The notes: generated by a model from the sequence alone, not told the origin. Positions 14,401 to 30,957 are shown, counted from the stretch's first letter. The stretch: 64,000 nucleotides of DNA from an uncultured Verrucomicrobiae bacterium (GCA_963762565.1 CAVXLD010000010.1:1-64000); one strand, 5' to 3'. Numbers and translations: made by a program.

Positions 14401-17233
14401 GGCAGCGGGTTCGGAAACCGGACGTTTCCTGCGAGAAAGACTAGCTCGCAAGGATGGAGGTGAGCGGGGTTGGCGGACGCCAGTCGTTCGGGAACTTGAG
14501 TTCCGACCGTGGGCCTCGCAAGCGAGGCGCCCTCCAGGGGCGACGGCGGAAGCGAGGCGCGTTTCAGATGGGATTTCGGTAGTCGGAGCTCGCCATCATA
14601 ATCTCAAGAACCTGTCATTGACGTTGCCTCGAGAAAAGATGGTGGTGGTGACCGGTCTCAGCGGATCCGGCAAATCCAGCCTCGCGTTTGACATCTTATT
14701 CGCCGAAGGCCAGCGCCGATTCCTGGACAGTATGTCGACCTATGCTCGCCAATTCGTCGAACAACTGGAGCGACCAGACGTTGACCATGTGGAAGGACTG
14801 CCCCCGAGCGTGGCTATCGAGCAACGTCTGACTCAAGGAGGCGGCAAATCGACGGTTGCGACCGTAACCGAGGTTTATCATTTTCTAAGGTTACTATTCG
14901 CAAAGCTAGGAACCCAGTACTGTCCGCGTTGCCAAGTCCCGGTGGCCAAGCAAAGTGTTTCCGCTATCATTCGCCAGGTTCGGACCTTGGTGCAGAAGGG
15001 CGGCCAACGTCTATTGGCTCCAGTGGTTAAGGCGCGTAAGGGTTATCACAAGGAAGTGGCGGCTTGGGCAGCGCGCGAGGGATATCAGGAGCTGATCGTC
15101 GATGGCAAGCTCTCATCCGTCGCCAATTTCCCGTCTCTCGAGCGATTCAGGGAACACTCTATCGACGTCGTCATCGCCAATTTGCGGACGGCTAAACCGG
15201 GTGACTTACCCGAGCTGGTGCGGACTGCGCTTCAGGTCGGCAACGGTTCAGCATTCGTGACCGATGGAAAATCTCGAACGGTGCTGAGCAGTGAAATGAC
15301 TTGTCCCAACTGCGGTGACGCCTTCGAGGAACTGGATCCGCGTCTTTTCTCTTTCAATTCCCCGCACGGATGGTGCCAGCATTGTAATGGATTCGGCTAC
15401 ATTTTGCCGTTTTCTACCGATGAAGAAGAGGCCGAGTCGAGGCTGGCCGCTGAGCTATTGGCGGAGCGTCGCAGTGAGTGGGTGGACGAGTCGGAAACCA
15501 CGATTTGCGAACATTGTCACGGGTCCAGATTGAATCCGGTGGCTCGAGCGGTGCGACTGGAAAATTTCTCTATAGAAGAGCTGGTGGCAAAGCCGGTCAC
15601 TCATGCCCTGGAAGCAATCCAGACCTTGAAATTCAATGGTGAGTATAAAGAGGTCGCCCAGACTATTCTTCCGGAAATCAAGCAGCGCTTGTTCTTCATG
15701 CGGCAGGTCGGGCTCGATTACCTTGCGCTTAACCGCGCAGCTAAGACGCTCAGCGGCGGTGAATCTCAAAGGATTCGGCTGGCTGCCCAATTGGGTTCTA
15801 ACTTGCGCGGCGTTCTCTACGTATTAGATGAACCCACGATTGGTCTTCATCCACGAGATAATGTCCGGCTTCTGGACACGCTGGTGGCATTAAAGGAAAA
15901 AGGCAACACGCTGGTCGTGGTAGAGCATGATGAAGCCACGATGCAAAGAGCCGATGTCATCGTGGACCTCGGACCTGGCGCCGGCCGTAAAGGGGGCGAA
16001 TTGGTGGCCCAAGGCAGTCTTGAACAAATTTCTGAACATCCCACCTCCGTTACCGGCCGGTATCTACGCCAGCCGATGTTACATCCTTCGCGACCGCGCC
16101 GGCTGCTGGCAGATGCGAATTGGATTTCATTGAGTGGAGCCCGAGCAAATAATTTGAAGGACATCGATGTTCGATTCCCGATCGGACGTTTAACCGTGAT
16201 CACGGGGGTTAGCGGCTCAGGCAAAAGTTCCCTGTTGCGTTCCGTCCTTTTGCCGGCGGTACAACAGTCTTTAAAGGAGACACGTAAGAACTCTGGTCCA
16301 TGGGACCAAGTCTCAGGAGCCGATCAGTTGGGAGGCGTGTTCGAGGTTGATCAGTCGCCGATTGGCAAGACCTCACGTTCAATTCCAGCCACTTACGTGA
16401 AAGTATTTGATGAAATTCGAAAGATGTTTTCCAAGCTTCCGGAAGCTCGGATTCGCGGATACGACGCCAGCCGCTTTTCCTTCAATATGCAGGGAGGCAG
16501 ATGTGAAGTCTGTTCCGGGCAAGGCGCGATCAAGCTGGAGATGAATTTCTTGCCTTCCAGTTGGGTGCCGTGCGACGCCTGTTCCGGCAAGCGTTTTAAC
16601 GAGCAGACCCTAGCCGTTCGGTACAATGAAAAGAGCATCGGCGATGTCTTGGAAATGACGATCGAAGAAGCGGCCGAGTTCTTCCGCGCGCATCCAAAGA
16701 TTCATCTGCCGCTTTCCCTCCTGGTAGAGACAGGGCTTGGCTATTTGCAGCTAGGACAACCGAGCCCAACCCTCAGTGGAGGCGAAGCGCAGCGCATAAA
16801 ACTCGTGAGCGAGCTAAAGACGGGGTTAGCTAAGGAACTAACCGATCGGGTGCGCAAAAATCGTAACCCAAAATCGAACCTCTATCTCTTGGAAGAACCG
16901 ACAATCGGCCTGCACATGGCCGATGTTCAACTTTTGGTGGAAGTGCTTCACCGGCTGGTTGACGACGGCAATACGGTGGTAGTCATTGAACATAATCTGG
17001 ATGTTATCTGCGAAGCGGATTACTTGATCGATGTCGGTCCCGAAGCCGGAGAATTCGGAGGCGAAATTGTGGCCATCGGTTCGCCCGAAGAAGTAGCGAA
17101 GAGCAAAGTTAGCCGGACGGCGCCGTTTTTGAGGAAGATGCTGAAGCTAGGGCGCTCCAAAACGGTAGGGCGAGGCTCCCGAAAGACCGCTCATCTCGAA
17201 CAAGGGAATTTGGAGCTGCCTAACCCAGGATGA
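11459..17233 (+). CDS. uvrA: excinuclease ABC subunit A, double-length form with four ABC domains
   Basis: 1924 aa with four Walker A motifs (GPSGSGKS, GVSGSGKS, GLSGSGKS, GVSGSGKS), four LSGGE signatures and UvrA zinc fingers. Intact ORF. Confidence 0.96.
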   Translation: MGKNASTTAIVIRGARQNNLQGIDLDLELNRLHVVTGPSGSGKSSLAFDTIYAEGQRRYVETFSPYTRQFLERMDKPLVDEIRGIPPAIAIEQANRVRTTRSTVGTITEINDYLKLLMPRIAHAFCPECGREIVPETAESISRKVANELAGKSVLVCFSVAAPPGTQPADFFSFLNQQGFLRVWLDRKVLRTDAPPAVERVPAMVPVIQDRLTVDAKPSARLTEAIEQALKYGKGRVSVVEVESGRRESDTENGRKGDTAKAVSRSTKVGLASQAAPEHKFSTGWHCPYCDLDIRAPSPGLFSFNNPLGACPDCRGFGRTIGIDLNRAMPDRRLSLADGVIKPFQTGSMKECQRDLLKCAAQREVDIHAPFEELPKADQDWVIEGETRPDQTAEEIWESGGWYGVRGFFDWMESRAYKMHVRVFLSRYRSYTLCRTCQGTRFKPETLNFKVVVGNDRYTLSELQQLPLDTLSDVMVQLKAASSEHTSEILLEQVVSRVSYLLEVGLSYLTLDRSTRSLSGGELQRVNLTTCLGASLVNTLFVLDEPSIGLHPRDIHRLVGVLTGLRDKGNTLVVVEHEEAVIQAADSIIEIGPGRGSKGGRLVFQGPLHEIDRALPDSLTAAYLTGKKRIPQPERRRQPKRFIEVVGARENNLKNLTVRLPLGVFCCVTGVSGSGKSTLVQQVLCENMLALKGKPGEEAPGLCSRIVGAHQVDDVVLVDQSPLARSPRSTPAVYVGIFDKIRDLFAALPAAKSAGLTSGSFSFNSGNGRCERCNGLGYEKVEMQFLSDQYVRCAECEGKRYQPHILDVKLDGKSIYEVLELTITEAIAFLARQLENNSEETSKVPTESASQARQRSTDLLRPLLLLEKVGLGYLRLGQPVNVLSGGESQRLKLVGHLTENHRSKLRYLLIFDEPTTGLHFDDIPPLLQLFHELADGGNSILVVEHNLDVIQAADYIIDLGPEAGLKGGQIVAEGTPEQVAKAAGSETGRFLRERLARKDGGERGWRTPVVRELEFRPWASQARRPPGATAEARRVSDGISVVGARHHNLKNLSLTLPREKMVVVTGLSGSGKSSLAFDILFAEGQRRFLDSMSTYARQFVEQLERPDVDHVEGLPPSVAIEQRLTQGGGKSTVATVTEVYHFLRLLFAKLGTQYCPRCQVPVAKQSVSAIIRQVRTLVQKGGQRLLAPVVKARKGYHKEVAAWAAREGYQELIVDGKLSSVANFPSLERFREHSIDVVIANLRTAKPGDLPELVRTALQVGNGSAFVTDGKSRTVLSSEMTCPNCGDAFEELDPRLFSFNSPHGWCQHCNGFGYILPFSTDEEEAESRLAAELLAERRSEWVDESETTICEHCHGSRLNPVARAVRLENFSIEELVAKPVTHALEAIQTLKFNGEYKEVAQTILPEIKQRLFFMRQVGLDYLALNRAAKTLSGGESQRIRLAAQLGSNLRGVLYVLDEPTIGLHPRDNVRLLDTLVALKEKGNTLVVVEHDEATMQRADVIVDLGPGAGRKGGELVAQGSLEQISEHPTSVTGRYLRQPMLHPSRPRRLLADANWISLSGARANNLKDIDVRFPIGRLTVITGVSGSGKSSLLRSVLLPAVQQSLKETRKNSGPWDQVSGADQLGGVFEVDQSPIGKTSRSIPATYVKVFDEIRKMFSKLPEARIRGYDASRFSFNMQGGRCEVCSGQGAIKLEMNFLPSSWVPCDACSGKRFNEQTLAVRYNEKSIGDVLEMTIEEAAEFFRAHPKIHLPLSLLVETGLGYLQLGQPSPTLSGGEAQRIKLVSELKTGLAKELTDRVRKNRNPKSNLYLLEEPTIGLHMADVQLLVEVLHRLVDDGNTVVVIEHNLDVICEADYLIDVGPEAGEFGGEIVAIGSPEEVAKSKVSRTAPFLRKMLKLGRSKTVGRGSRKTAHLEQGNLELPNPG

Positions 17234-17253
17234 GCCGCGAAGCGCTCTTCTTT

Positions 17254-17347
17254 GGTGGGGCGAGGCTCCGGAAATACCCAAATTAGTCGCAGAGTCTTCG
17301 ACTTGTTCTAGCCCTCGACGCCAATGCACCGCGACGCTGCCGAGCCG
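17254..17347 (+). repeat. split-REP unit A (GGTGGGGCGAGGCTCCGGA-63 nt-GCTGCCGAGCCG)
   Basis: Read directly from the sequence; left flank of the RAYT gene. Confidence 0.9.
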
Positions 17348-17374
17348 AAAAGCATCCAGCACCCCTGGCTTGCT

Positions 17375-17833
17375 TTACCACCATTCGTCGTTCTGGTAAA
17401 TCTCGCCACGAAATGGCCAATCCTTGGGCTTTGCCACTAGACCCGCCCGCACAGGATTCATAAACATGTAGCGGCGCTTTTCTTCCGCTCCTTCCCAGGA
17501 TCGGATACGGTGATGAAGCCCCCCAGATTGCCAGCTAAGCTCGCGATTACGTATCGTCTTCATGAACATCGATTTCCAGTATTGGATCCAGCGGTCGAAA
17601 GTTGCAGAGCCATGACCGGGCCTGGCGAAAAGGTGTAAGTGATCGGGCATCAAGATGTAAGGGCCGACCTCCCAATGCGTGGCAGAGCGCCAGATTTGGA
17701 CCAATGTGTCATGGACGTGCGGATCGGCTAACCAAGGTTGGCGCTGCAATGTGCAAACGGTAAGAAAAATCAGGGTCGGCGCGCGATCGTCTTCGATGAT
17801 GCCTTTGGCGGGGTGTTTTCTTTGGGGCAGCAT
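17375..17833 (-). CDS. REP-associated tyrosine transposase (RAYT/TnpA-REP, HUH Y1 family)
   Basis: IFLTVCT, YILMPDHLHLF (HUH), WQSGGLHHRIR and YMFMNPVRAGLV..KDWPF. Flanked by inverted REP units. ATG at 17833. Confidence 0.9.
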   Translation of the reverse strand: MLPQRKHPAKGIIEDDRAPTLIFLTVCTLQRQPWLADPHVHDTLVQIWRSATHWEVGPYILMPDHLHLFARPGHGSATFDRWIQYWKSMFMKTIRNRELSWQSGGLHHRIRSWEGAEEKRRYMFMNPVRAGLVAKPKDWPFRGEIYQNDEWW

Positions 17834-17915
17834 TGTTATATAGTAACATAGATTTTTTATGTTGTATATAAACGACAACCCAGGCGCGACACGCAGAACC
17901 AATACGTCGAGGGCC

Positions 17916-18009
17916 CGGCTCGGCAGCGTTTCGGACTTGTAGATTCGGAAGTCTCCACAACCGAAGGCCTTGGGATGCATTTCCGGTAATTCCGGAGCCT
18001 CGCCCCACC
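17916..18009 (-). repeat. split-REP unit B (63-nt core)
   Basis: Inverted partner of unit A on the other side of the RAYT gene. Confidence 0.9.
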
Positions 18010-18107
18010 AAAGTGGGGGATGCGCCTCGCCCTACCACAAAATTTTCTTGAGCGGGGGTCGAAGCTAGCGGATGGGTGGCGTTCCGTCTTTTTGGACTGA
18101 AGTAACG

Positions 18108-18797
18108 ATGAATCTGAGCCGCAAACTGCAAAAGATCGCCACGGGCGAAGCCTGGGCGAGCGGCATCGATCGCTACTACCGGTGGAAGCATCCGCTGACA
18201 GTGGACTCACTGCTGGAAAACATCGATCGAGGAAAGCTGAATCAAATCTGCGAGAAGTATCATGTGCCCGGCGAAATCAAGGCTTGGCCGAAGTATACAA
18301 ACTATGAGCATTGGCTGGGTAGAGCGGTCGATCATGTTCGAGAGCTTCGACTCGATCGAGAACCGAAACTTCAGATTCTGGATATCGGTAGCGGGGCTGG
18401 ATATTTCCTTTTCGTATTGAAACGACTCGGGCACCGCGTCTTCGGCCTCGACCTGGCCGAACCTGAGTTCTATGGTGAACTTTTCGCCCTGCTCGGACTC
18501 GAGCGCGTTGTTTGGCGGATCGAACCGTTCGAACCATTACCGGACGTCGGCCGTCGCTTTGATCTAGTTACCGCTTTCGCCATCTGTTTCAATGGCCATG
18601 GGAGCGGGAGAATCTGGGATCGGAAAGAATGGGACTTCTTTCTAAACGATCTGCAATCGCGATACCTCAATCCAGGCGCAAGAGTTTTCTTGGCTCTCAA
18701 TCCGGAAGAACACGGGCATTACACTCCGGAGCTTCGCGATTTCTTTCTGCAGCGGGGCGCCAAGATTGATCGGCACCAGATTTGGCTGCAGACTTAG
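18108..18797 (+). CDS. class I SAM-dependent methyltransferase
   Basis: ILDIGSGAGYF motif I and FDLVTAF. Confidence 0.8.
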   Translation: MNLSRKLQKIATGEAWASGIDRYYRWKHPLTVDSLLENIDRGKLNQICEKYHVPGEIKAWPKYTNYEHWLGRAVDHVRELRLDREPKLQILDIGSGAGYFLFVLKRLGHRVFGLDLAEPEFYGELFALLGLERVVWRIEPFEPLPDVGRRFDLVTAFAICFNGHGSGRIWDRKEWDFFLNDLQSRYLNPGARVFLALNPEEHGHYTPELRDFFLQRGAKIDRHQIWLQT

Positions 18798-18980
18798 CGG
18801 TTAGCGGTTCACCGTTCGCGGGTCGCGAGTCTGTATCGTCCTCGTTCTCGTCGTCGTCCTCGTCCTCGAAAGGGGTTGCGATTTGGCGTCGTCCGTTAAG
18901 AGCTAGGGCGTACGAGAGGGCCCTGCTAGCGGATGGGAGCTGTAGGACTTATGGGACTAATAGGACGACGCGGAAATCTC

Positions 18981-19871
18981 CTAAGGTCGTATCGCCGCGA
19001 GTTTTTCCAACACGGTCTTAACGCCCAGGCCGGACATGGTTCGATCCGGGCTCTTTATGACGACCACGTGATCGCCGTTAGGCGCCCAGATCGTGGGATC
19101 GGTTGGACCGAACAGAGCAACGGTGCGAACACCGGTGGCAGCGGCTACGTGCGTAACGCCGCTATCATGTCCGATAAAGAGCGCTGCTTGGCTCAGTTCG
19201 GAAACCAAGTCCCAGAGGGGCCTGTTCGCGCACCGGCGAAGCTTGGTCCTTGGAATCAGAGGTACTATTTCCTCAGCAACGTCCGCATCTGCCTCACCCG
19301 AGATCAGTAAGACTTCATCGAATGCCGACATCAATTCGCCTAAAAGCGCGGCCCAATGACTTGAGGGCCAGGTTTTCTTGGGTGAGCCGCTACCTGGGTG
19401 GATCGCTAACCGGTTGCGAGGCCGGGTCGACAGAGACGCGTTCAATCGAGGAATAGGATCAATCGAGCTAATCCTCAGATCGCGGAGGGGCTGGGAAAGC
19501 TGTTCAACTGCTGGCCGACGTTCGAGGTCGAGTTTGAATGGCCCCTGTAAAAACTTGGCATTCGCCGATGACGCCAGCTTCTGCTCGATTATTCTATCGG
19601 GATCCGATAGATAGCTAAGGACCAAGTCTGCTCTGAGACTTACAAGAACTTGATCCGACAGAACGGCCTCTGGCTTGAAAAGCCCGACCAAGCTTGCTGA
19701 ATTCAAGTCCAGAATCAGATCCGCACAACGGCACGCCAGAACTGCTTGTGGATAGGGCGCAACGAACGTGATCAAACAACGGGGATAAAAATCCCGCAGA
19801 GCCTGCAAGATCGGCAGGGTTAATATGATATCGCCCAGCGCGCCGCCGCGAAGAACGACGATCTGCAACAC
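18981..19871 (-). CDS. glycosyltransferase family 9 (LPS heptosyltransferase-like)
   Basis: RGGALGDIILTLP, IHPGSGSPKKTW and FIGHDSGVTHVAAATG..TVALFGPT. Confidence 0.9.
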   Translation of the reverse strand: MLQIVVLRGGALGDIILTLPILQALRDFYPRCLITFVAPYPQAVLACRCADLILDLNSASLVGLFKPEAVLSDQVLVSLRADLVLSYLSDPDRIIEQKLASSANAKFLQGPFKLDLERRPAVEQLSQPLRDLRISSIDPIPRLNASLSTRPRNRLAIHPGSGSPKKTWPSSHWAALLGELMSAFDEVLLISGEADADVAEEIVPLIPRTKLRRCANRPLWDLVSELSQAALFIGHDSGVTHVAAATGVRTVALFGPTDPTIWAPNGDHVVVIKSPDRTMSGLGVKTVLEKLAAIRP

Positions 19872-19898
19872 AGTAAAAAACGAACCAACAATAGGGGC

Positions 19899-20102
19899 TT
19901 AGTAATTCCCGTAACGGTTGTTGCCGACTCCTGGAATCGCTCCAAGTTGCCCATTACTTTCCCAACCTTGCGGTTGGTTCCAAGGGATCGTGCTTTGCGG
20001 CTGCCCGAACTGCGGCGTCTGGGTTTCTTTCGCCGCTTCTTGGTCAACCTGGCAACCGGCCAACATCAATACCAATCCAAACAATAGGAACAGCGTTCTC
20101 AT
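19899..20102 (-). CDS. small lipoprotein
   Basis: Hydrophobic signal peptide ending in a LAGC lipobox. Confidence 0.65.
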   Translation of the reverse strand: MRTLFLLFGLVLMLAGCQVDQEAAKETQTPQFGQPQSTIPWNQPQGWESNGQLGAIPGVGNNRYGNY

Positions 20103-20103
20103 C

Positions 20104-20820
20104 TTACCTTACCGTAATGCTTACTGGGTCACCTACTGATACCCGCGCGAAATTCTCCGGACCATCAGCCACAAATTGTGCGACGCAACTATTCTTATCA
20201 ACCGAAACCACCCGCAATTGGCCCACCGTCTGACCGTTCTTTTCGACGGTCAAATGCATATTTGTGGTGACGCCCAGGTCGCTACCAAGGCTCACCATCA
20301 ACGCTTGCGCGTCGCGATTCATCGAGAGTATCGTTCCTTCCAAGGTCACCTGAGCTTTCGATTTATTCTTTTCTTTGGAAGTGGCGTTCAACCGCATCTG
20401 GTTCAAAGTGTTTTCAACATTGATTAACCGTACGGCCAGAGATTGCCTATCATCTTCGGCCTGTTTTTTTTGGTCAAGACCACGGCGAGCATCGGTTAAT
20501 TGGTTGGCCAGTTCCTGATTGTCTTTGTCCCGAGCTGCGATTTGATCCGTGAGCTGGGCGAGGTTGGTCTTGGTGGAGGTGAGCTCGGAATTCATTGCGT
20601 CCCGTTGCTGCTCGTTCGTATGCCGCTCGTTTTCGATCTGCTGCCCCATCTGCTGCAAGGTCTTTTGCAGGTCGTCCTGTTTGGCCTGCAACTGCTTTGT
20701 TTTATTGACGGAGGAGGCAAGATCTTGGGTCAGTCGGGCCAACTTATCCCGGTTATAAAAACCCAATCCCGCCGCGCCAATGGCGCAAAGCATCGCAACG
20801 ATCAGAAGAAAACGAGCCAT
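20104..20820 (-). CDS. membrane-anchored coiled-coil hypothetical protein
   Basis: N-terminal TM/signal segment, long Q/E/K/L heptad region, and a beta-rich C-terminus (VSLGSDLGV...VSVGDPV). Confidence 0.7.
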   Translation of the reverse strand: MARFLLIVAMLCAIGAAGLGFYNRDKLARLTQDLASSVNKTKQLQAKQDDLQKTLQQMGQQIENERHTNEQQRDAMNSELTSTKTNLAQLTDQIAARDKDNQELANQLTDARRGLDQKKQAEDDRQSLAVRLINVENTLNQMRLNATSKEKNKSKAQVTLEGTILSMNRDAQALMVSLGSDLGVTTNMHLTVEKNGQTVGQLRVVSVDKNSCVAQFVADGPENFARVSVGDPVSITVR

Positions 20821-22160: not shown

Positions 22161-22170
22161 CTCGCAACTT

Positions 22171-22432
22171 GGTGGGGCGAGGCTCCGGAACGGGCTAGAA
22201 CGCCGCACAGGGTTCACCGCATGGGCCGCGATTGTCACGCATTGGGCCGACACGCTGCCGAGCCGCGCCCCTGATTCGGCAACATCCAGAAATCATCCAA
22301 TCGACCCACAGACCGTTCCAGTTGCTACGCACTGGGCCCGGCTCGGCAGCGATTCGGCCCTGCACACAGTATCGTGGAACCCTGCGCCGAACTTTGGAGA
22401 GATCAGGGTCCGTTCCGGAGCCTCGCCCTACC
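22171..22432. repeat. inverted pair of split-REP units C (22171-22265 +) and D (22339-22432 -)
   Basis: Same termini as units A/B; cores of 64 and 63 nt. Confidence 0.9.
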
Positions 22433-22477
22433 AACTGGAAGGTTGAAATCGATCCTCGAATTCGCTAGCAAGGAGCT

Positions 22478-24763
22478 TTGGAAATCGAGCTTGCTATTGT
22501 CTCGGGGTTACCGCCCTTCAACAGGTCTTTCTCTCAGGAGAGCGTCTTGATTGGACGTTCGACGGAGGCAGACCTGGTTTTGAGCCATCCCGAAGTATCG
22601 CGACGCCACTGCCGGATTATGGCGCAACAGGGCGGATTTGTAATCGAGGACCTGGGCAGCCAGCGCGGCACGGTCGTGAATGGAAGCGCGATCAGCGGCC
22701 AGGTACAGCTGACGCCGGGAGACCAGATCGCGCTAGGCCCTATCGTTATCGGCTTTGGGAAAGCTCCGGCCGGGCAGCTGCCTTCGGGCGGTGAAGCCTC
22801 GGTAGGAGAAGCATTAGGGGCTCCGGGAACGGTCGTGTACGCAAAGCAGGCGGTAGACAGGATCCCGCTCACCGCGCGATTGGTGTTCGGCCGAAGCCAA
22901 GAAGTAGATGTTCAGCTAAACGACCCCATGGTGTCGCGGCGGCACGCAGTGGTAGAAGAGAATTCCGACGGTTTTCGAGTCCTAGATTTGTACAGTCGAG
23001 CGGGCTCGTTCGTGAACGGCCGTCGTTTCGATGAACATCAACTCATCATCGGCGATCAGCTTCAGCTTGGACCGTTCTGTTTTGTTTTCACGGGGAACGA
23101 GCTCCACCGGATCCTTCGAGTCTCGGTGGGGAAAGTTATAGCAAACGGGTTGAACCGTACCGCCGGCGGCAACTTGATCCTTGAAGACGTCTCTTTCGTC
23201 GCCGAACCCGGGCAATTTATCGGCATACTCGGTCCTAGCGGCGCCGGAAAATCGACCCTCCTCGGGGCCTTGAGCGGGTTAAGACCGGCTGATAGCGGAA
23301 AAATATTAATCAACGACATCGACTTTTACGCACATTTGAACCAGCTCCGGTCGATGTTCGGTTATGTGCCGCAGGACGACATCGTTCATGGCGACCTAAC
23401 ACCGGCCGAGGCATTGACGTTCGCCGCTCGCCTTCGTCTTCCAGCGGGGACACCTAGGTCCGCCATCGGTGCGCTTGTCCAACAAACCATGGGGAGCCTT
23501 GGTCTTGCCGAGCGGAAGGATCTGCGGATTTCGCTGCTCTCGGGCGGCCAACGGAAACGGGTCAGTGTCGGAGTAGAGCTGCTCCGGCGCCCGCCACTAA
23601 TCTTTTTAGACGAACCTACGTCCGGTCTGGATCCATTTTCTGAGTTTAAACTCATGGAACTGTTGCGCCGATTGGCGGACACCGGTTGCACAGTGATCTG
23701 CACAACGCACGTCATGGAAAACGTCTTTCTGATGGATCAGATCGCCGTGCTGCTGGCCGGCAAGTTGCTTTTCCAGGGACCCCCTGATGCAGCTCGAGCC
23801 CGGTTTGGCGTGAGCCGGCTGAGCGCTTTGTACGACCTGCTTCAGACCATCGATCCCAAGACGGTAACCTCCTTTTCTCAGCCAGAGGCTCCTCCAGCAC
23901 CTCCAAGTACCGAACAACGGCCCCCGGAAATCAAGCAGCGACGCCCATTCGCGCTCCCGATTTTACTGGAACGCCAGTTGGCGATTTTCAGAGCTGACCT
24001 AAAGAATCTGGTAATTGCCCTCGGCCAACCTTTAGTGATCGGTCTCCTGGTGTGTTGGGTAACCGACCACATTCCCCTGATTCAGTTCTTCGCTTACATT
24101 GCTACCTTCTGGTTCGGATGCAGCAATTCCGCCCAAGAAATCGTTAAAGAGACCCCGATTTATCGGCGAGAACGCCTCGTCGGCCTAAGCCGAACCAGCT
24201 ATCTGGCAAGCAAGCTCATCTGGATGGGGAGCATCACCAGCTTACAAAGCCTGATCCTTTACGCCTGCACACTGGTTACCCAACGGGTTCCGCTTTCCGC
24301 TGCACCGGCTGAAATTGTGGGGCTGCTACTGCTTTCGTTTGCAGCCACCGGCATCGGGTTAGCCATCTCCTGTTTTGCCCGCTCGGCTCTCCAAGCCGTG
24401 ATGCTAGTGCCGCTGATATTGATCCCCCAAATTTTACTGTCCGGCTACACGGTGGAAGCGTCCCAGATGGATACGCCGGTGCTCTGGGTGGCTCAAATCA
24501 TGCCCAGTTTTGCAGCGGAACGCATTTCGGACGAGAGCATACTTTTGAATCAACAGATCGCCAGAGATGTGAGTGAAAAGTTCGATCGGCCGTACGACAA
24601 TCTTAATCAGTATTATCGGGCGGCGACCGGGCAACGCTTCAAGACCGGTCAAATTTATTCGGACACGCGGCCGCTTTGGGTTGGCTATTTAAATCTGTTT
24701 CTTTGGAGCCTAACCGGGTTCGTTCTGTCGTATGTGGGATTGGTGTTCAAGGAGAAAGAGTAA
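22478..24763 (+). CDS. FHA-FHA-ABC transporter ATPase/permease (Rv1747-like)
   Basis: Two FHA domains (IGRS...VSRRH...GS.NG), GPSGAGKST, LSGGQRKR, DEPTSGLD and a C-terminal ABC2 membrane domain. Confidence 0.92.
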   Translation: MEIELAIVSGLPPFNRSFSQESVLIGRSTEADLVLSHPEVSRRHCRIMAQQGGFVIEDLGSQRGTVVNGSAISGQVQLTPGDQIALGPIVIGFGKAPAGQLPSGGEASVGEALGAPGTVVYAKQAVDRIPLTARLVFGRSQEVDVQLNDPMVSRRHAVVEENSDGFRVLDLYSRAGSFVNGRRFDEHQLIIGDQLQLGPFCFVFTGNELHRILRVSVGKVIANGLNRTAGGNLILEDVSFVAEPGQFIGILGPSGAGKSTLLGALSGLRPADSGKILINDIDFYAHLNQLRSMFGYVPQDDIVHGDLTPAEALTFAARLRLPAGTPRSAIGALVQQTMGSLGLAERKDLRISLLSGGQRKRVSVGVELLRRPPLIFLDEPTSGLDPFSEFKLMELLRRLADTGCTVICTTHVMENVFLMDQIAVLLAGKLLFQGPPDAARARFGVSRLSALYDLLQTIDPKTVTSFSQPEAPPAPPSTEQRPPEIKQRRPFALPILLERQLAIFRADLKNLVIALGQPLVIGLLVCWVTDHIPLIQFFAYIATFWFGCSNSAQEIVKETPIYRRERLVGLSRTSYLASKLIWMGSITSLQSLILYACTLVTQRVPLSAAPAEIVGLLLLSFAATGIGLAISCFARSALQAVMLVPLILIPQILLSGYTVEASQMDTPVLWVAQIMPSFAAERISDESILLNQQIARDVSEKFDRPYDNLNQYYRAATGQRFKTGQIYSDTRPLWVGYLNLFLWSLTGFVLSYVGLVFKEKE

Positions 24764-24835
24764 ATCGCCGCCCATCACCTCGGACTTCGTTCTCGTCCTC
24801 GTAGTCGTCCGCCCAATGAACACGAGCCCATCGCC

Positions 24836-25073
24836 GGGAGGGATCGCAGCCTGTCCGACATAGCCTTCCATCGTGGGTCTTTTCTTCGCTGCGCTGGCGA
24901 CGTCGGATCCTCGCGATCAGTTGTCCTCGAAGTCCACGACAGACCCAATCCAGCGTTAGCCTGAGTCCCAAATTGTAGACCCGTTCGCGGCGCGCGAGGA
25001 TCCGACTTCGCCGAGCGAAAGAACAAATAACCTCAAGATCACAGGCTTCGTCGGACAGGCTGCGCGCCCTCCC
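24836..25073. repeat. inverted pair of a second REP family (GGGAGGGnnCGC..CCTGTCCG..GGATCCTCGCG)
   Basis: Copies at 24836-24918 (+) and 24989-25073 (-), between convergent genes; a third copy is at 33578-33634. Confidence 0.75.
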
Positions 25074-25093
25074 CGATCTGCGTGCGGACTCCG

Positions 25094-26005
25094 TTAGCCG
25101 TCTTTCAATCCGAACACGCGGACTTGCTGGCTCTTGCCTTTCAGTTGAAAGACACCGAAGTCGGCAAATTGCCGGCCCGGCGGCAACACAGTCACAAAGT
25201 CTTCTGATAACACAAGAGGCTGGTTCAACTGTTTCATGACGCCTTCCAGCCGAAAAGCGGTATTAACAGAGTCACCGATAATCGTCGCGTCGCGAACTGC
25301 TACCTGCCCGATATTGCTGCTGGTAACCCTTCCAAAATGTAAAGCGATACCGACGCGAAACGGCTGATCCGTATCGGCCCAGGTACGGCTAGCGGCTAAT
25401 TCCAAGATGGTGTACGCGACGTCAAGACAAGTGGCGGATTCCGTTCCGATTTGATCCCGGGCAGGCCAATAAGCCAACACAGCGTCGCCAATGTATTTAT
25501 CGATAATCCCGCCCGTGGATTGTACGGTATTTCCGATATCGCGAAACCAGTTGCCTAAGATTTGGGCGATCTTGCGATCGCCGAGCTTTTCTGCCATCGG
25601 GCTGAACCCGCGGATATCGCAAACCAAAAGCGAGACGGAAAGAATTGCGTGACTCGTATCGTGGCTTAAAGCGGCCAAGGTTGCATCGGTGTGATCACCG
25701 CTCTGATCGCCCGGCATGGTTTCAAACACGAGCTCATAATCCGCGATTCGAACCCGAGAGCCGGGCTCAAGTACGACGGGCATGACGACGCGTTGATCAT
25801 TGACGAACGTCCCATTTCGGCTGCCCAGATCCATAATCTGGTACTGGAAAGCGTTGTGGCAACGAACGATCGCGTGTTGGCGGGATACGTGATTGCCGGG
25901 AAGAGGAACCGTGTTATCAACGGTCCGCCCGATGGTAGCAGTATTCTCTATTGTCCTCTCAAACGGTTCACCCGTAGGAGGATACACGCGAAATTTAGCC
26001 GGCAT
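25094..26005 (-). CDS. FHA-domain adenylate/guanylate cyclase
   Basis: FHA domain (IGRT...VSRQH...GSRNGT) plus class III cyclase motifs (CDIRGFS, DKYIGDAVLA, IGDSVNTAFRLE, LKGK). Confidence 0.92.
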   Translation of the reverse strand: MPAKFRVYPPTGEPFERTIENTATIGRTVDNTVPLPGNHVSRQHAIVRCHNAFQYQIMDLGSRNGTFVNDQRVVMPVVLEPGSRVRIADYELVFETMPGDQSGDHTDATLAALSHDTSHAILSVSLLVCDIRGFSPMAEKLGDRKIAQILGNWFRDIGNTVQSTGGIIDKYIGDAVLAYWPARDQIGTESATCLDVAYTILELAASRTWADTDQPFRVGIALHFGRVTSSNIGQVAVRDATIIGDSVNTAFRLEGVMKQLNQPLVLSEDFVTVLPPGRQFADFGVFQLKGKSQQVRVFGLKDG

Positions 26006-26138
26006 TTAACTTTCCAGAAGCTCGGGCTAACGATGCCACGAGGCAAGCGCCTTGGCTAGCATTTGGTCCCAACCGGGAAAGAAAATCAGGCGACCGCGGG
26101 ACGCACTGGTAGGGTGAGGCTCCCGAATGACCTAATTT

Positions 26139-26345
26139 GGTAGGGCGAGGCTCCGGAGTAGCCGGAAGAGACTATCAGGGGGAGTGATGATTCGTCGGTA
26201 TATTGGGTGCGAAGTCCGAGAGCTGCCGAGCCGTCGGCTGCGCAACCCACGGCTCGGCAGTTCTTAGGCACTGCGACTGATATGGCGACCAAACAATTAT
26301 TTACCCTGCGATTTGTCTCAGGCTATTCCGGAGCCTCGCCCTACC
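26139..26345. repeat. inverted pair of split-REP units E (26139-26233 +) and F (26250-26345 -)
   Basis: Cores of 64 and 65 nt; an extra truncated end lies at 26108. Confidence 0.9.
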
Positions 26346-26370
26346 AACGCCAGGAGGCACGCTCCGCCGT

Positions 26371-26577
26371 TTAGCCTTTATCCAAGAAAAATGGCAAGCT
26401 TCCGCTGAAATGCTGGTGAACGATCGTCGCTAGGTAGGACATGATGATCAGGAAGATCGTGATCAGGCCAGCCGCCATGCCGAGCCCGGCTAACCCTACT
26501 CGTAGTTCTCGCTGAAAAGAGTGGTCTTCGGTGGGGGCAGGTTTTTGTTGTTCCATGGTTTCTTTCAGAGGGATCAC
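26371..26577 (-). CDS. small single-TM hypothetical protein
   Basis: One hydrophobic segment, VGLAGLGMAAGLITIFLIIMSYL. Confidence 0.5.
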   Translation of the reverse strand: MIPLKETMEQQKPAPTEDHSFQRELRVGLAGLGMAAGLITIFLIIMSYLATIVHQHFSGSLPFFLDKG

Positions 26578-26616
26578 CTAATACTTTCGCGCTAAAGGCG
26601 GGTTGTAAAGAGCAAT

Positions 26617-26795
26617 CCGTGGGACGCGCCTTGCTTGCAAGGCCGATAGCCGCCGGCACCGTGGAGCGCGCCTTGCTTGCAAGGCCGATAGCGGCCGGCA
26701 CCGTGAAGCTCCTTTATTCGGCACGGGTTCGCAAGGCAGGCAATTTACCCACGGTTCCGACCGAGTCGGCCTTGCAAGCAAGGCGCGCTCCACAA
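26617..26795. repeat. third REP family (CCGTGGAGCGCGCCTTGCTTGCAAGGCCGA), tandem and inverted copies
   Basis: Two tandem copies at ~26617-26700 and an inverted copy at 26765-26793. Further copies occur at ~59075-59255 and inside uvrA. Confidence 0.8.
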
Positions 26796-26856
26796 GTCCC
26801 TAAACTTTTTGGCCCTCCGCAGTTGACTCAGGCCTAAGCATCACCTAACCTGGCAA

Positions 26857-26970
26857 CTTCCATCAAGAGTGGCGGAGGGACTGGCCCAATGATGCCACGG
26901 CAACCGGTTCTGTGTGAACGGAACGACCAGGTGCCAATTCCAGGTCCGAGTTTTCGGGCGAAGATGGAGA
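26857..26970 (+). ncRNA. SAM-I riboswitch (S-box)
   Basis: TTCCATCAAGAGTGGCGGAGGGACTGGCCCAATGATGCCACGGCAACC...GGTGCCAATTCC...AAGATGGAG matches the SAM-I consensus, with P1 formed by CCATC/GATGG. Confidence 0.93.
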
Positions 26971-27012
26971 GAGCGATTTGGTGACGTGATTCGCACTCTT
27001 GGTGGGAAAGAA

Positions 27013-28281
27013 ATGACTATTCCTGCCATGGACAATAATCCCTTATTCTCGCACCTCCAATGCCGTGAATGTGGACGTCGCTATCCGAAGGACGCGATCC
27101 ACGTGTGCGAGTTCGATTTCGGACCATTAGAAGCGGCTTACGATTATCCCGCCATCGCCAAACAGGTCACCCGGGCAAAAATCGAAGCTCGTCCGCGGTC
27201 GATGTGGCGTTACCGCGAGTTGCTGCCGATCGAAGGTGAGCCTCTGGTAGGCAAGCATACGGGATTCACCCCTTTGGTGCGAGCAAATCGCCTCGCAGAA
27301 CGGCTCGGGGTAAAAGAGCTCTACATCAAAAACGACGCAGTAAATTTCCCTAGTCTCTCATTTAAAGACCGCGTGGTCGCGGTCGCCCTTACCCGAGCGA
27401 AAGAGCTAGGGATCGACACTGTGGCTTGCGCTTCAACTGGTAATTTAGCAAACGCTGTCGCCGCTCATGCCGCCTCCGCCGGGCTACGCAGTTTCGTCCT
27501 CATACCGGCCGACCTGGAGCAAAGCAAGATTCTTAATTCGTTGGTGTATGGAACCAATGTTATTGCGATCGACGGGGCGTATGATCAGGTCAATCGCCTT
27601 TGTTCAGAGGTTGCCGGCAAGTACGGCTGGGGATTCGTTAATGTGAATCTCCGCCCATACTATGCGGAAGGCTCAAAGACCCTAGGGTTCGAGATCGTTG
27701 AACAACTGGGCTGGAAAATTCCTCGGCACACAGTAGTCCCTATGGCCAGTGGTTCTTTACTGACCAAAATTGGCAAGGCTTACGAGGAACTCGGCAAAGT
27801 CGGGTTGGTCGCCGAAACCGCATATTCCATCTATGGAGCTCAGGCGGCCGGATGTTCACCCATCAGTACCGCGATTAAGAATAATACCGAGACAGTGCGG
27901 CCGGTCAGCAAACCGCAGACGATTGCGAAGTCGCTCTCGATTGGGACACCGGCGGACGGTTATTACGCGATCAGGGCCATGAAAAATAGCGGCGGGACCG
28001 CTGAAGATTGCAGTGATGAAGAGATTATCAATGCCATCCGGCTGTTAGCGGAGACAGAAGGTATCTTTGCGGAGACCGCGGGCGGCGTAACTCTAGCTTG
28101 TGCTCAGAAATTAATTGCCAACGGCGCGATTCCTCGAGATGAGTCGATCGCCCTCTGTATCACCGGCTACGGCCTGAAGACGCAAGAAGCGATTGCTGGG
28201 CATGTTGGTAGCCCTTCTGTGATCCGACCCAATCTGCGAGCATTCGAAGAGCTGGTCGAACAAGCTGTCCAACCAATTTAA
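27013..28281 (+). CDS. thrC: threonine synthase-family PLP enzyme
   Basis: CxxC N-terminus, SMWRYRELLP, GFTPLV, SFKDR (PLP lysine), ASTGN, YYAEGSKT and ITGYGLKT. Confidence 0.88.
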   Translation: MTIPAMDNNPLFSHLQCRECGRRYPKDAIHVCEFDFGPLEAAYDYPAIAKQVTRAKIEARPRSMWRYRELLPIEGEPLVGKHTGFTPLVRANRLAERLGVKELYIKNDAVNFPSLSFKDRVVAVALTRAKELGIDTVACASTGNLANAVAAHAASAGLRSFVLIPADLEQSKILNSLVYGTNVIAIDGAYDQVNRLCSEVAGKYGWGFVNVNLRPYYAEGSKTLGFEIVEQLGWKIPRHTVVPMASGSLLTKIGKAYEELGKVGLVAETAYSIYGAQAAGCSPISTAIKNNTETVRPVSKPQTIAKSLSIGTPADGYYAIRAMKNSGGTAEDCSDEEIINAIRLLAETEGIFAETAGGVTLACAQKLIANGAIPRDESIALCITGYGLKTQEAIAGHVGSPSVIRPNLRAFEELVEQAVQPI

Positions 28282-28294
28282 CGAGATAACCCTT

Positions 28295-28570
28295 ATGTCT
28301 GTGCCTGTCCGCATTCCAACCCCGTTGCGTAAGCTAACCCAAGATCAGGAAATTGTTGAAGTCGATGGCCTCACGATCCGAGATGTGATCGAAAACCTCG
28401 AGAAGGCTTATCCTGGCCTAAAGGAACGCATCTGCGACGAGGAAAATAATATCCGTCGTTTTGTTAACGTGTTTGTTAACGATGAAGACATCCGATTCCT
28501 CCAAGATGCTGCCACCCCGGTCAAGCCGGGAGACGAAGTCAGCATTGTTCCAGCGATTGCCGGGGGGTAG
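28295..28570 (+). CDS. MoaD/ThiS/CysO-type ubiquitin-like sulfur carrier
   Basis: VRIPTPLR...RRFVNVFVNDEDIRFL...IVPAIAGG with a C-terminal GG. Confidence 0.92.
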   Translation: MSVPVRIPTPLRKLTQDQEIVEVDGLTIRDVIENLEKAYPGLKERICDEENNIRRFVNVFVNDEDIRFLQDAATPVKPGDEVSIVPAIAGG

Positions 28571-28571
28571 A

Positions 28572-28620
28572 GGCGTTTGGCGTTTGGCGTTTGGCGTTTG
28601 GCGTTTCGGCGTTTGGCGGT
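28572..28620. repeat. simple tandem repeat (GGCGTTT)n
   Basis: Seen directly. Similar short intergenic tandem tracts occur at 18836-18868, 20866-20895, 21350-21390 and 59270-59303. Confidence 0.8.
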
Positions 28621-28706
28621 TGCCGGCTGACGGTTCGAAGCTGTTTTTAAGGTTGTTGGTTAGGTGATGGTTGGTGGTTTGCGGTTTGAGGTCTGGCGGT
28701 TAAGGG

Positions 28707-29726
28707 TTGGTTGTTTTGATTGATCTGAGACCGCTCGACCCCGCCGTGCCATGGCATCTTCGTCGACTGCTGTTTGGTCTGGCGTTGTTTGGGGCGGTTG
28801 GCGTTGTAGTACCCGCCAGTCTCGCCCAGCAACTACCGGATGAGGCGCGCTCGAGCATTCACGCGGCGGGCGGTATCGTTTCAACGGTTCGCGCCGGCAA
28901 CCTGGTTTTCGCAGCGGTTTCGATTAATCAGTCGCCGCCTACTTGGTGGTTAGTCGATACCGGGGCAACCACGTGTGAGTTCGATCTGGGAACCGCTAAC
29001 CGGCTCAATCTGAAGCGATCGAAGAGATATCGGCTCACCTCGAATCCAAAAAACCGAGGAGAGCGGTTCGTTTTTGTGGAAGCACCTGATCTAGTGGTGG
29101 GAACGGTCGAGTGTGGACCGCTGGTAATGCTGGCGCATCCGCTGGTTCAAGCGCTGAGCAAGTCTGAGGGCCCTCCGCACTGGTCCGGGCCGTTCGAAAA
29201 GACCGGGCTGCTCGGAATGAACCTGCTTGCCGCTAAGCATGCAATCATCGTCTGGCGAAAACAGCGGATCTATCTTGACCCTAGCGATCCAGAGATAAAA
29301 TCGAAAGCCGAATACGAGGCAGAAGGTTATAGATCGGTCCCATTTAGCGTAACCGCTAGCCGGCAAGTCCAGATTGAAGGCACGTTAGGAAGCGTTCACT
29401 ATCAATTTTGCCTCGATACCGGCAGCCCTAGAACCATGATCGACCAGTCGGTGGTAGATGAGGACCGGCTTCCCTACCGCCTGACTAATTCCACTGTCAA
29501 GAGCCCTCTGAAGGAGTTTGCCGACAGCAAAGTCGTTCGGGTTATCGGCACGCGGTTTCAACTGGGCAATTATGATTTGAGTGATCGCAAAATCCTGGCT
29601 GCTTCACTTCATCTGACAAAATCTGCGCGCGGCGATATCTGGGCTGGATTAATCGGGGCAGATGTTCTCTGGGATTATGACGCCGTGATCGACTTTGTGT
29701 CGAATACTCTGTATTTGCATAAATAA
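28707..29726 (+). CDS. secreted two-domain retropepsin-like aspartyl protease
   Basis: WWLVDTGA and FCLDTGS catalytic motifs; GLLGMNLL and GLIGADVL motifs. Confidence 0.8.
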   Translation: MVVLIDLRPLDPAVPWHLRRLLFGLALFGAVGVVVPASLAQQLPDEARSSIHAAGGIVSTVRAGNLVFAAVSINQSPPTWWLVDTGATTCEFDLGTANRLNLKRSKRYRLTSNPKNRGERFVFVEAPDLVVGTVECGPLVMLAHPLVQALSKSEGPPHWSGPFEKTGLLGMNLLAAKHAIIVWRKQRIYLDPSDPEIKSKAEYEAEGYRSVPFSVTASRQVQIEGTLGSVHYQFCLDTGSPRTMIDQSVVDEDRLPYRLTNSTVKSPLKEFADSKVVRVIGTRFQLGNYDLSDRKILAASLHLTKSARGDIWAGLIGADVLWDYDAVIDFVSNTLYLHK

Positions 29727-29820
29727 CTGAGTACCCGTTGATCTACTCTCCAGGACGAGCGTGGAGTCGATTGAGAATTCGGCTTGATTAGATTCGCACC
29801 CATCTGGCAAAAACGCGGCC

Positions 29821-30816
29821 ATGCGGAGGTTTGGCCTGGTATGCCTTTCGTTAGCGGTCGGCATGGCGCTCTCTGAGACAACGCTGTTGAGTTTGCTAAG
29901 CCTCCTTTGCTTGGCCGCTTCTACCCGAGCTCAGGTTGCATTCGGGTATACGAAGATCATTTTCGCGACCCAGAATCACCTGGTAACACCTGTCTCGGTT
30001 AATCACACAGGGGTAACGTGGTGGATGGTCGACACCGGCGCGCCCAGGTCAATGATCGATCCGGAACTGGCAAATAGACTCGGACTACAAGCAACTACGA
30101 CCTTCAAAGCTGGCTCGCACGACGCTGATCGCGGGACCAGATTTCCTATTGTCGTACTCGATGACTTGCTGGCGGGCACATTTCATTGCGGGCGGACAGC
30201 CTGTGTTGAAAGATCAATCAAGGAGGTCAAAAGTTTCGCCACAACGGCTTGGACGGGGAAGTTCGATAAAACAGGACTAATCGGCCTCGATCTCCTTCAT
30301 AAGTACGGTGCTCTCATCAATATTCGAGCTGGGAAGATCTTTTTTTCCCCGACTGGAAACTTGGGAATGTCCCGAGAAGGTTATGAGAAAATGGGGTTCA
30401 CTTATGTTCCACTTACCGTGACTTCGTATGGGCGACTGGAGTTGGTTGGCACTCTCGCAGGTCGCGACTACAGCTTCTTTATTGATACCGGAGCTCCGAT
30501 GACGGTCCTTGAAAACTGGGTTCGGACAGCGGCTAATATTCCATACGTAAACGCCGGCGAGATCACCCTGCCTTTCACGGACATCAAAAATGCTCGGCTC
30601 ACTTATGGAAAGGCTACCGATTTCAAGCTGGGTAGCTATGATGCGAAGGGAGCATTGGTGTGCTTCGCGCCTACAAATCTAGAGGCGACGGGCTTTGGTG
30701 GTTTTTCTCATCAACTTGCCGGCACGATTGGGATCGATTTCCTGTACTATCGATCGGCTATTATCGATATCGGAGGTGGTGCACTTTACCTCAAACCCAG
30801 CACAAACCCGCATTGA
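29821..30816 (+). CDS. secreted two-domain retropepsin-like aspartyl protease
   Basis: WWMVDTGA, FFIDTGA, GLIGLDLL and GTIGIDFL. Confidence 0.82.
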   Translation: MRRFGLVCLSLAVGMALSETTLLSLLSLLCLAASTRAQVAFGYTKIIFATQNHLVTPVSVNHTGVTWWMVDTGAPRSMIDPELANRLGLQATTTFKAGSHDADRGTRFPIVVLDDLLAGTFHCGRTACVERSIKEVKSFATTAWTGKFDKTGLIGLDLLHKYGALINIRAGKIFFSPTGNLGMSREGYEKMGFTYVPLTVTSYGRLELVGTLAGRDYSFFIDTGAPMTVLENWVRTAANIPYVNAGEITLPFTDIKNARLTYGKATDFKLGSYDAKGALVCFAPTNLEATGFGGFSHQLAGTIGIDFLYYRSAIIDIGGGALYLKPSTNPH

Positions 30817-30846
30817 GGTTTAAATTGCTCCTCCGCTTCAGAACCG

Positions 30847-30941
30847 CGGCTCGGCAGCATATTGGCGTTGCACAACCGCCGGCGAAGAACGTGTTTGAGC
30901 TTTGCTTACCCAATTCGGACATTCCGGAGCCTCGCCCTACC
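30847..30941 (-). repeat. split-REP unit G (solo, 64-nt core)
   Basis: Same termini as the other units; lies between convergent genes. Confidence 0.88.
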
Positions 30942-30957
30942 ATTTGCCGGAGCGAAC

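Follow-up and report, generated by a model that had tools for sequence, protein, structure and literature searches.

A GTAG-type REP with a loop of about 74 nt, arranged in REPIN-like pairs and linked to a RAYT gene in a soil Verrucomicrobiota genome

A RAYT gene and seven long-loop units

We examined C10:1-64000 (64,000 nucleotides, hereafter the window) of a 6.12-Mb, 15-contig assembly from a soil Verrucomicrobiota bacterium with 54% G+C (assembly G000). The window carries a gene for a RAYT, a tyrosine transposase associated with repetitive extragenic palindromes (REPs), together with seven dispersed units that are copies of a GTAG-type REP linked to this RAYT, in which the loop measures about 74 nt instead of about 4 nt. 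Four of the units form two REPIN-like pairs; REPINs, by the account credited to Bertels and Rainey in 2011, are reportedly REP doublets that form hairpins.

The 14-mer GGCGAGGCTCCGGA, allowing up to two mismatches, occurs 11 times in the window against an expected 1.02, a number attained by 0 of 100 shuffles. Exact matches mark the seven units, A to G, and a copy with one mismatch lies at 17169. Alignment of these eight sequences reveals a 16-nt head, GGT[A/G]GGGCGAGGCTCC, followed by GGA, then an interior of 63-65 nt that is hard to align, and finally a 3′ tail terminating in GCCGAGCCG. The complete units in the window are 94-96 nt long. By motif count and alignment, an initial annotation of this DNA was right about the positions and layout of the seven units, of the truncated copy and of the RAYT gene. 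Its eight listed copies are real, but the list is incomplete, as two head remnants, at 26108-26138 (+) and 18013-18036 (-), had been overlooked. The features are as follows.

17375..17836 (-): RAYT (TnpA-REP), 153 aa, with an HUH motif (HLH) and a catalytic-Tyr motif; NCBIfam and PDB 4ER8 matches
17254..17347 (+): unit A, a long-loop REP lying downstream of the RAYT with its head outward; head match and alignment
17916..18009 (-): unit B, a long-loop REP lying upstream of the RAYT with its head outward; head match and alignment
17164..17237 (+): shortened unit, whose head has one mismatch, with a shorter interior and a tail-like GAGCCG
18013..18036 (-): head remnant, GTAG and first stem half only, adjoining unit B
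22171..22265 (+): unit C, left arm of the convergent pair C/D, which forms the REPIN-like element 22171..22432
22339..22432 (-): unit D, right arm of pair C/D; the C-D spacer is 73 nt
26108..26138 (+): degenerate head remnant, immediately upstream of unit E
26139..26233 (+): unit E, left arm of the convergent pair E/F, which forms the REPIN-like element 26139..26345
26250..26345 (-): unit F, right arm of pair E/F; the E-F spacer is 16 nt
30847..30941 (-): unit G, a solo long-loop REP adjoining the start of a penicillin-binding protein (PBP) gene

Neither the C/D nor the E/F pair encloses a gene. The shortened unit overlaps the final codons of a UvrA-like open reading frame (ORF; 11459-17233, +, 1924 aa) with several ABC/UvrA domains. 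The accessible part of Di Nocera et al. (2013, PMC3733652) mentions that REPs have inserted into both uvrA genes of Opitutus terrae.

The product of ORF 17375-17836 (-) matches the NCBIfam family NF047646, REP_Tyr_transpos, with 84.5 bits (cut-off 80; E 6.5e-24), and aligns with E. coli TnpA-REP (PDB 4ER8; E 6.3e-7) across the HUH and Tyr/NPV motifs. These two matches bear out the earlier assignment of the units to a RAYT. A Pfam search returned no match for either the 201-aa or the 153-aa form of the protein. Units A and B enclose the ORF in inverted orientation with their heads out, the 'REPtron' layout. This layout is kept in three species, as orthologues with 83-86% identity and the same flanking units are found in two related Verrucomicrobiota metagenome-assembled genomes (loci L009 and L010). 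The position of unit A is occupied in both of them by a unit with intact head and tail and a diverged core. In our cross-species comparison, the RAYT-flanking units are the only ones that hold their position, again with heads and tails intact and cores diverged. The genome holds one cognate RAYT of this clade, and the gene is single-copy, not itself multiplied.

The stem of these units consists of GGCGAGGC and GCCGAGCC, eight positions comprising three G:C pairs, a tandem G.A/A.G and three more G:C pairs. The head is thus GTAG followed by the 5′ stem half and TCC, and the tail is Y followed by the 3′ stem half. The initial annotation had rightly seen a REP whose stem halves are split by an exceptionally long loop. 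The GGCTC/GAGCC stem that it proposed, however, is here replaced by GGCGAGGC/GCCGAGCC, on the strength of a compact form in relatives and of a compensatory difference, GGC/GCC versus ACC/GGT. We searched 81 genomes of the order for GGCGAGGC and GCCGAGCC separated by 2-30 nt and recovered a compact 20-mer with a 4-nt loop, GGCGAGGC-TCCY-GCCGAGCC, present 14 times in G062, four times in G080, twice each in G012 and G070, and once each in G033, G004 and G000 itself (C5:277230). Among the compact loci that were fetched, some have GGTAG before the stem and others have variants such as GGCAG, GATAG or GGGAG. The compact form in these relatives is a textbook GTAG REP. In G080, a RAYT with 46% identity is flanked by GGCGA-ACC-TCCC-GGT-GAGCC, which has three copies in that genome; in its upper stem, ACC/GGT stands in place of GGC/GCC, which is a compensatory change. 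Separately, in G062, a member of a sister genus, compact REPs in tandem runs flank the RAYT (L038:1363-1422 and 2009-2228). These read GTAG plus GGATGCGC-TCCT-GCGCGTCC; their TCCT loop is as in the compact form above and their stem is different.

A second REP family in the same genome, with 116 heads, has the foot GTAG-GGCGA...GAGCC in common with the first and likewise flanks a RAYT of its own, at C7:542286 (L004:1319-2100). Here a 19-nt head pairs with a 17-nt tail around a variable loop of 29-33 nt (94 units). One stem column of this family reads T:A in 44 units, A:T in 23 and C:G in eight, and is thus complementary in 75 of 75. Its loop is enlarged like that of the first family, at 29-33 nt versus 8 nt in the related RAYT-flanking REP of G012.

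Copy number, pairing and turnover of the family

The head 12-mer, GGGCGAGGCTCC, is found 481 times in G000 as an exact match and 567 times with up to one mismatch. For quantitative work we used 450 units genome-wide, defined by a head and a tail with no more than one mismatch each and a length of 90-99 nt. Their lengths are concentrated at 96 nt (n = 110), 95 nt (n = 109), 97 nt (n = 84), 94 nt (n = 63) and 98 nt (n = 46). Near-constant length, as first noticed in the window, also emerges when no length filter is applied. There are 861 exact GGCGAGGC sites in the genome, 443 of which have an exact GCCGAGCC no more than 300 nt away, and in 409 of these 443 the distance between the two is 68-77 nt, with a mode of 74. 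Most of the longer distances reflect a head remnant followed by a full unit. The stem is preceded by GGT[A/G]G, position 4 being A or G and the remaining head positions having an entropy of 0.3 bit or less. Three anchor motifs that the window had suggested as fixed within the interior turn out to be tendencies, not invariants. A C at core position 6 occurs in 80% of units. CARRG is found in 46%, or 73% if relaxed to CRRRG, compared to 5% and 13%, respectively, of shuffled cores. CC before the 3′ arm occurs in 68%, versus 23% of shuffled cores.

Units are predominantly organized as convergent pairs. Among neighboring units less than 400 nt apart, 179 combinations are convergent, one is divergent and one is tandem, and 359 of the 450 units are paired. 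Their spacers range from 8 to 144 nt, with peaks at 16-18, 44-49, 73-76 and 85-105 nt. The pairing partners are fixed by core subfamily (described below), with 61/61 occurring 25 times, 36/6 17 times, 41/63 11 times and 47/42 nine times, and many pairs are heterodimers. Of the 179 pairs, 17 are located within a crude ORF call, and the remainder lie in gaps or have an ORF call beside one side only. Convergent gene gaps hold 51 pairs and divergent gaps 21, against a background of 878 and 873 such gaps.

The four closest pairs of elements, with core identities of 0.85-0.89, reveal the extent of the copied segment. In all of them homology spans the left arm, the spacer and the right arm. In three of the four it ends at the outer GGT...ACC, with unrelated flanks, and in the fourth (on C4, the two elements being ~1.3 kb apart) it extends into the flanks. 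The whole 210-300 bp pair, spacer included, is what is copied, as in a REPIN. Across the 179 pairs we found no target-site duplication, the flanks being directly identical no more often than chance predicts for k = 2-8; identity over 2 nt occurs in four of the 179 versus about 11 expected, and none is seen at 6 or 8 nt. The base before the head is T in 89% of cases at position -1 and in 69% at position -2.

The family is concentrated in one genus. All six of its six genomes contain the head 12-mer (59, 144, 187, 225, 340 and 481 occurrences), compared to eight or fewer in the other 25 genomes searched. The full long-loop pattern (exact head, 55-80 nt, exact tail), applied to 43 genomes of the taxonomic family, was found 403, 290, 155, 117, 97 and 41 times within the genus; outside it, four genomes hold 3, 3, 1 and 1, and the remaining 33 of the 43 hold none. 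G062, G014 and G096 are among the genomes with one to three such units. The few units in other genera indicate that the long-loop form is older than the genus and that its expansion is confined to it.

Comparison of G000 with G002 shows how quickly sites change. The two genomes are identical at 0.54 of four-fold degenerate sites (925 of 1713), corresponding to about 0.7 substitutions per neutral site. We mapped the upstream flank of each G002 head to G000 with blastn, each call thus being judged by one flank. G002 has 54 heads in 407,784 nt, 47 of which have an upstream flank that could be mapped; the corresponding G000 site is without a head in 29 of these 47 and has one in 18. At the 13 sites with full units in both genomes, core identity is 0.46-0.68. 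Compared to the random level (median 0.55, 5-95% range 0.48-0.62), about four of the 13 are clearly related.

Individual sites in the window behave similarly. What fills the gene gap of C/D (22160-22477; L012-L015) varies, as G003 has another GTAG palindrome there, G002 a degenerate pair, G004 a head stump and G005 unrelated DNA. The gap is a hot spot for REP-type insertions. The G003 hairpin in this gap bears a related head, GGTAGGGATGAGCTCC. No E/F pair was found at the corresponding site of G002-G005, and at the site of unit G, G002 has a unit of another subfamily. Because sites differ between species in this way, the elements must have moved since the species split. Sequencing runs that match this DNA include at least 20 DNA runs from soil or fungus metagenomes, and no RNA run was among those listed. 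Metagenome contigs of four runs break at or near the repeats and reveal neither a clean empty site nor an excision product; the head-head joints that they contain, with sides of 21-29 nt, are repeat artefacts.

Drifting loops, intact stems and alternative explanations

Over all pairs of the 450 units, core identity has a median of 0.365 (MAFFT alignment). Nearest neighbors are considerably closer, the median being 0.625, the 95th percentile 0.85 and the maximum 0.94. Average-linkage clustering at a distance of 0.55 yields clusters of 65, 36, 33, 29, 16, 16, 15, 15, 15, 13, 11 and fewer members, of which 29 have at least four members, each with its own consensus. That the core differs in every copy, as the initial annotation put it, therefore fails as a general rule, as the cores form 25 or more subfamilies; the seven in the window looked unalignable because they are drawn from different ones. 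Ordinary decayed copies had been expected to combine a continuous phylogeny of alignable cores with a broad spread of lengths. The genome-wide set has the former and lacks the latter.

The cores differ from their subfamily consensus at 0.329 per site (12 clusters of at least nine members), with 0.048 indels per substitution. Given this low indel rate and one ancestral expansion, about one indel per core is expected within a subfamily. The observed spread of lengths has a standard deviation of about 1.4 nt, and the spread expected across saturated subfamilies is about twice that. The near-constant loop length is best read as inherited from one ancestral expansion and preserved by the low indel rate, with at most mild constraint, and a mild constraint on unit length is possible.

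Taken together, these units are probably long-loop GTAG REPs, arranged in REPIN-like pairs and served by the RAYT. Each unit would be a GTAG-type REP hairpin that the RAYT uses as a single-strand DNA substrate. In this genus the loop of the REP measures about 74 nt, compared to 4 nt in other genera of the order, and the long-loop form has multiplied. Two convergent REPs, with tails facing and heads out, form with their subfamily-specific spacer a non-autonomous element of 210-300 bp. We infer that its copying is performed in trans by the RAYT at 17375-17836, which itself has such a REP on either side. If this RAYT acts like E. coli TnpA-REP, it would recognize the GTAG, the lower part of the stem and those stem positions that are unpaired or mismatched, leaving the loop unread. 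Loop sequence could then drift at roughly the neutral rate and split into subfamilies, with changes that break head or tail being removed. In the available text of Corneloup et al. (2021, PMC8266576), the E. coli enzyme needs GTAG, contacts in the lower stem and mismatches that stay unpaired, the loop bases are unselected, and the role of the upper stem-loop is structural and non-specific. If loop bases are unselected, a greatly enlarged loop is mechanistically plausible.

Several observations weigh against this interpretation. First, the GTAG REPs described in the part of Di Nocera et al. (PMC3733652) available to us have a stem that measures 5-13 bp and a loop that measures 2-20 bp, and at 68-77 nt the loop here is outside that range. 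Second, we found no compensatory pair within the first family, in which both stem halves are perfect in 407 of 468 units. Its stem is too invariant for covariation, and the stem model therefore rests on the relatives and on the sister family. Third, RNAfold favors another outer pairing, of GGT..GGCG with CGCC..GCC. Fourth, the two arms of a pair are not more alike than arms of different pairs, with core identities of 0.62 within and 0.63 between the 25 61/61 pairs, on an aligner baseline of about 0.53-0.55; the long REPIN hairpin of the Pseudomonas type is thus not conserved here beyond heads and tails. Finally, a simple scheme of selfish copying and decay seems to fail, since copying appears too slow to preserve the 24 stem positions.

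This last point follows from the contrast between cores and stems. Nearest-neighbor cores differ at about 0.38 per site, or an estimated 0.25 substitutions per site per lineage, at which 24 neutral stem positions would be expected to have undergone about six changes. To recover units independently of their ends, we used core-only profiles of four subfamilies. These retrieve 128 near-full units; the 12-nt head is perfect in 116 of them and the 8-nt tail in 123, indicating that the contrast between stem and loop is not made by the way units were selected. At such a low copying rate, selection for the ability to transpose seems, by our estimate, too weak on its own, a view that applies the quasispecies argument made for REPINs (bioRxiv 10.1101/2021.07.10.451892; PMC8049555, from the portions of these texts at hand). 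Cell-level selection, homogenization or conversion of stems, or fast removal of broken copies are each possible means by which the stem of every copy could be kept up. Many head stumps adjoin full units, which fits fast removal or replacement of broken copies.

A more active form of upkeep is an alternative that we consider doubtful. Under it, the long loop would not be passive. The RAYTs of this genus, or a host factor, would measure the distance from head to tail and actively keep the stems uniform, possibly by cleavage and repair, by short-tract conversion, or because each copy does a job for the cell. The loop motifs (C at position 6, CRRRG and GCC) would then be protein contacts. This idea is prompted by two independent REP families of the genus that both have enlarged loops of tight length, and by stem halves that are still near perfect in hundreds of resident copies after roughly 0.25 neutral substitutions per site. 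The near-constant length in the first family is best read as inheritance at a low indel rate with at most mild constraint, as described above.

It is very unlikely that the units represent a structured small RNA of ~95 nt or a cis-regulatory RNA family in which the conserved ends form a closing helix. Such a family could be suspected from that helix and from the semi-conserved motifs (CRRRG in 73% of units, C at core position 6 in 80%), and some of the predicted folds permit G:T pairs. Against this, an Rfam scan of 16000-32000 with E up to 1 placed nothing on the units, and RNAalifold on the MAFFT alignment of the 450 units returned an empty consensus structure. Core folding energy equals that of dinucleotide shuffles, with a mean z of 0.01 under RNA parameters and 0.10 under DNA parameters (150 of the 450 units), so that a length-constrained scaffold in the form of a stable fold, another of the earlier suggestions, is also unsupported. 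Mutual information between end-anchored columns is dominated by subfamily signal, not by Watson-Crick columns. Furthermore, strand-symmetric convergent pairs and a flanked transposase are properties at the level of DNA.

The initial annotation had suggested a design resembling repeats and spacers, in which the core of 63-65 nt would be captured or actively diversified by the HUH nuclease and act as guide or cassette. Near-invariant ends around highly diverse cores of near-constant length do resemble such a system, and stems intact far beyond neutral decay leave room for some active process, yet we now regard this reading as highly improbable. The cores form graded subfamilies, with nearest neighbors up to 0.94 identical, and pairs are inherited together with their spacer. 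No outside source of cores emerged, as 439 of the 450 have no BLAST match outside the family in the genome (E 1e-4), and the 11 with such matches are mostly cases of one core carrying another repeat. A search of 50,697 phage and 72,556 plasmid records with the E/F pair as the sole query gave no match. Substitutions show a symmetric spectrum (A>G 0.133, T>C 0.123, G>A 0.119, C>T 0.099; transition/transversion ratio 1.19), with no strand-specific or C>T bias. The adenine bias of diversity-generating retroelements is likewise absent, the per-base rates being A 0.232, C 0.186, G 0.218 and T 0.239 (no reverse transcriptase search was made). Nor is hypermutation suggested by the top four of the 13 same-site units of G000 and G002, which are 0.60-0.68 identical versus 0.54 at four-fold sites of neighboring genes, values that come from different aligners (baseline about 0.53-0.55). 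Finally, the units form no array and are dispersed in gene gaps. Our data thus support neither capture nor active diversification of the cores, nor a structured RNA.

Least probable of all is an ordinary miniature inverted-repeat transposable element (MITE) moved by a DDE transposase and lying near the RAYT by coincidence: perfect terminal inverted repeats of 16-20 nt and a size of 210-300 bp are typical of MITEs, but there is no target-site duplication, units flank the RAYT with their heads outward in three species, and the GTAG foot and mismatched stem are typical of REPs and common to the compact REPs of relatives.

Other features of the window lie outside the family. An S-adenosylmethionine (SAM) riboswitch (Rfam RF00162, 85.5 bits) at 26857-26970 (+) precedes the ORF of a pyridoxal phosphate (PLP)-dependent enzyme at 26914-28281; the listed start of this ORF overlaps the SAM aptamer, and the true start is probably further downstream. 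A bacterial small signal recognition particle (SRP) RNA (RF00169, 56.9 bits) is found at 21130-21224 (+). A further family of palindromic repeats is represented at 26621-26800. It combines a ~45-nt direct repeat with an inverted copy around the self-complementary CCTTGCTTGCAAGG and has dozens of matches in G002-G005. A sub-threshold Rfam match to 'MIR7486' in the same interval sits on the palindromic repeat, and we rejected it as spurious. At 21343-21424, an array of short 'ACGCC'-type words is followed by a CT-rich segment, with many matches of 26-80 nt in related genomes. Contigs from soil metagenomes pile up at 18835-18870 and at about 28605, with a summed depth of 200-450 and many loose ends, which suggests a very widespread short repeat or conserved segment; these places are not tRNA genes, as ARAGORN found none. 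Lastly, the second of two neighboring ORFs with aspartyl-protease domains (29821-30816, +) is without a counterpart in the blocks of G002 and G003 that are syntenic with this region.

Significance and comparison with known systems

A limited literature search, with supplements outside its scope, turned up no description of REPs with loops of ~70 nt. The family described here suggests that a RAYT recognition module consisting of GTAG, lower stem and mismatch can carry a loop of 74 nt and still reach hundreds of copies. Search tools tuned to loops of 2-20 nt, and to REPs less than 130 bp apart, would miss or mis-size such families. With ~450 copies whose loops are free and whose stems are frozen, and with a short-loop ancestor in sister genera, the family also offers a natural experiment on how RAYTs read their substrates. 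The contrast between neutral loops and near-perfect stems furthermore bears on whether REPINs are kept up by the cell or by their own replication alone.

Among known systems, the ends of IS200/IS605 elements (IS608, ISDra2) share with this family an enzyme of the HUH/Tyr superfamily, subterminal imperfect hairpins in single-stranded DNA, a guide-like placing of the 5′ tetranucleotide and insertion without target duplication, as set out in the available part of Corneloup et al. (PMC8266576). Unlike those elements, the transposase gene here is not multiplied and the repeats are gene-less, and we identified no left and right ends that differ in their cleavage sites.

REPINs are closer. As here, two inverted REPs and a variable spacer are copied as one non-autonomous unit, the genome has one cognate RAYT of the clade, inheritance is vertical within the clade, and conserved REPs enclose a variable interior. 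Bertels and Rainey (bioRxiv 10.1101/2021.07.10.451892, in the part available to us) call the REPIN spacer 'highly variable' and the REPs conserved, give a length of about 100 bp, and define REPINs by REPs less than 130 bp apart. In contrast, the elements of this genus measure 210-300 bp, and their heads are beyond that 130-bp limit. Many of the pairs are heterodimers of two subfamilies, the complementarity of the arms is limited to heads and tails and does not make one long hairpin, and the interior has no dominant master sequence.

The closest resemblance is to GTAG REPs and their RAYTs, including the E. coli REPtron. Compared to these, the present unit is long, at 90-99 nt versus the 20-40 nt described in the accessible part of Di Nocera et al. 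(PMC3733652), and its loop, which lacks a stable structure, changes at close to the neutral rate. The same portion of that article reports GTAG REPs mainly as head-to-head dimers, both homo- and heterodimers, with spacers of 20-100 bp, notes GTGG variants in Opitutus terrae, another verrucomicrobium, and describes an unpaired or mismatched GA inside the stems of GTAG-24, the P. aeruginosa REPs. The family described here is alike in its GT[A/G]G foot before an imperfect hairpin, in the mismatched GA within the stem, in its hundreds of extragenic copies and head-out dimers, in the RAYT between inverted copies, and in insertion without target duplication.

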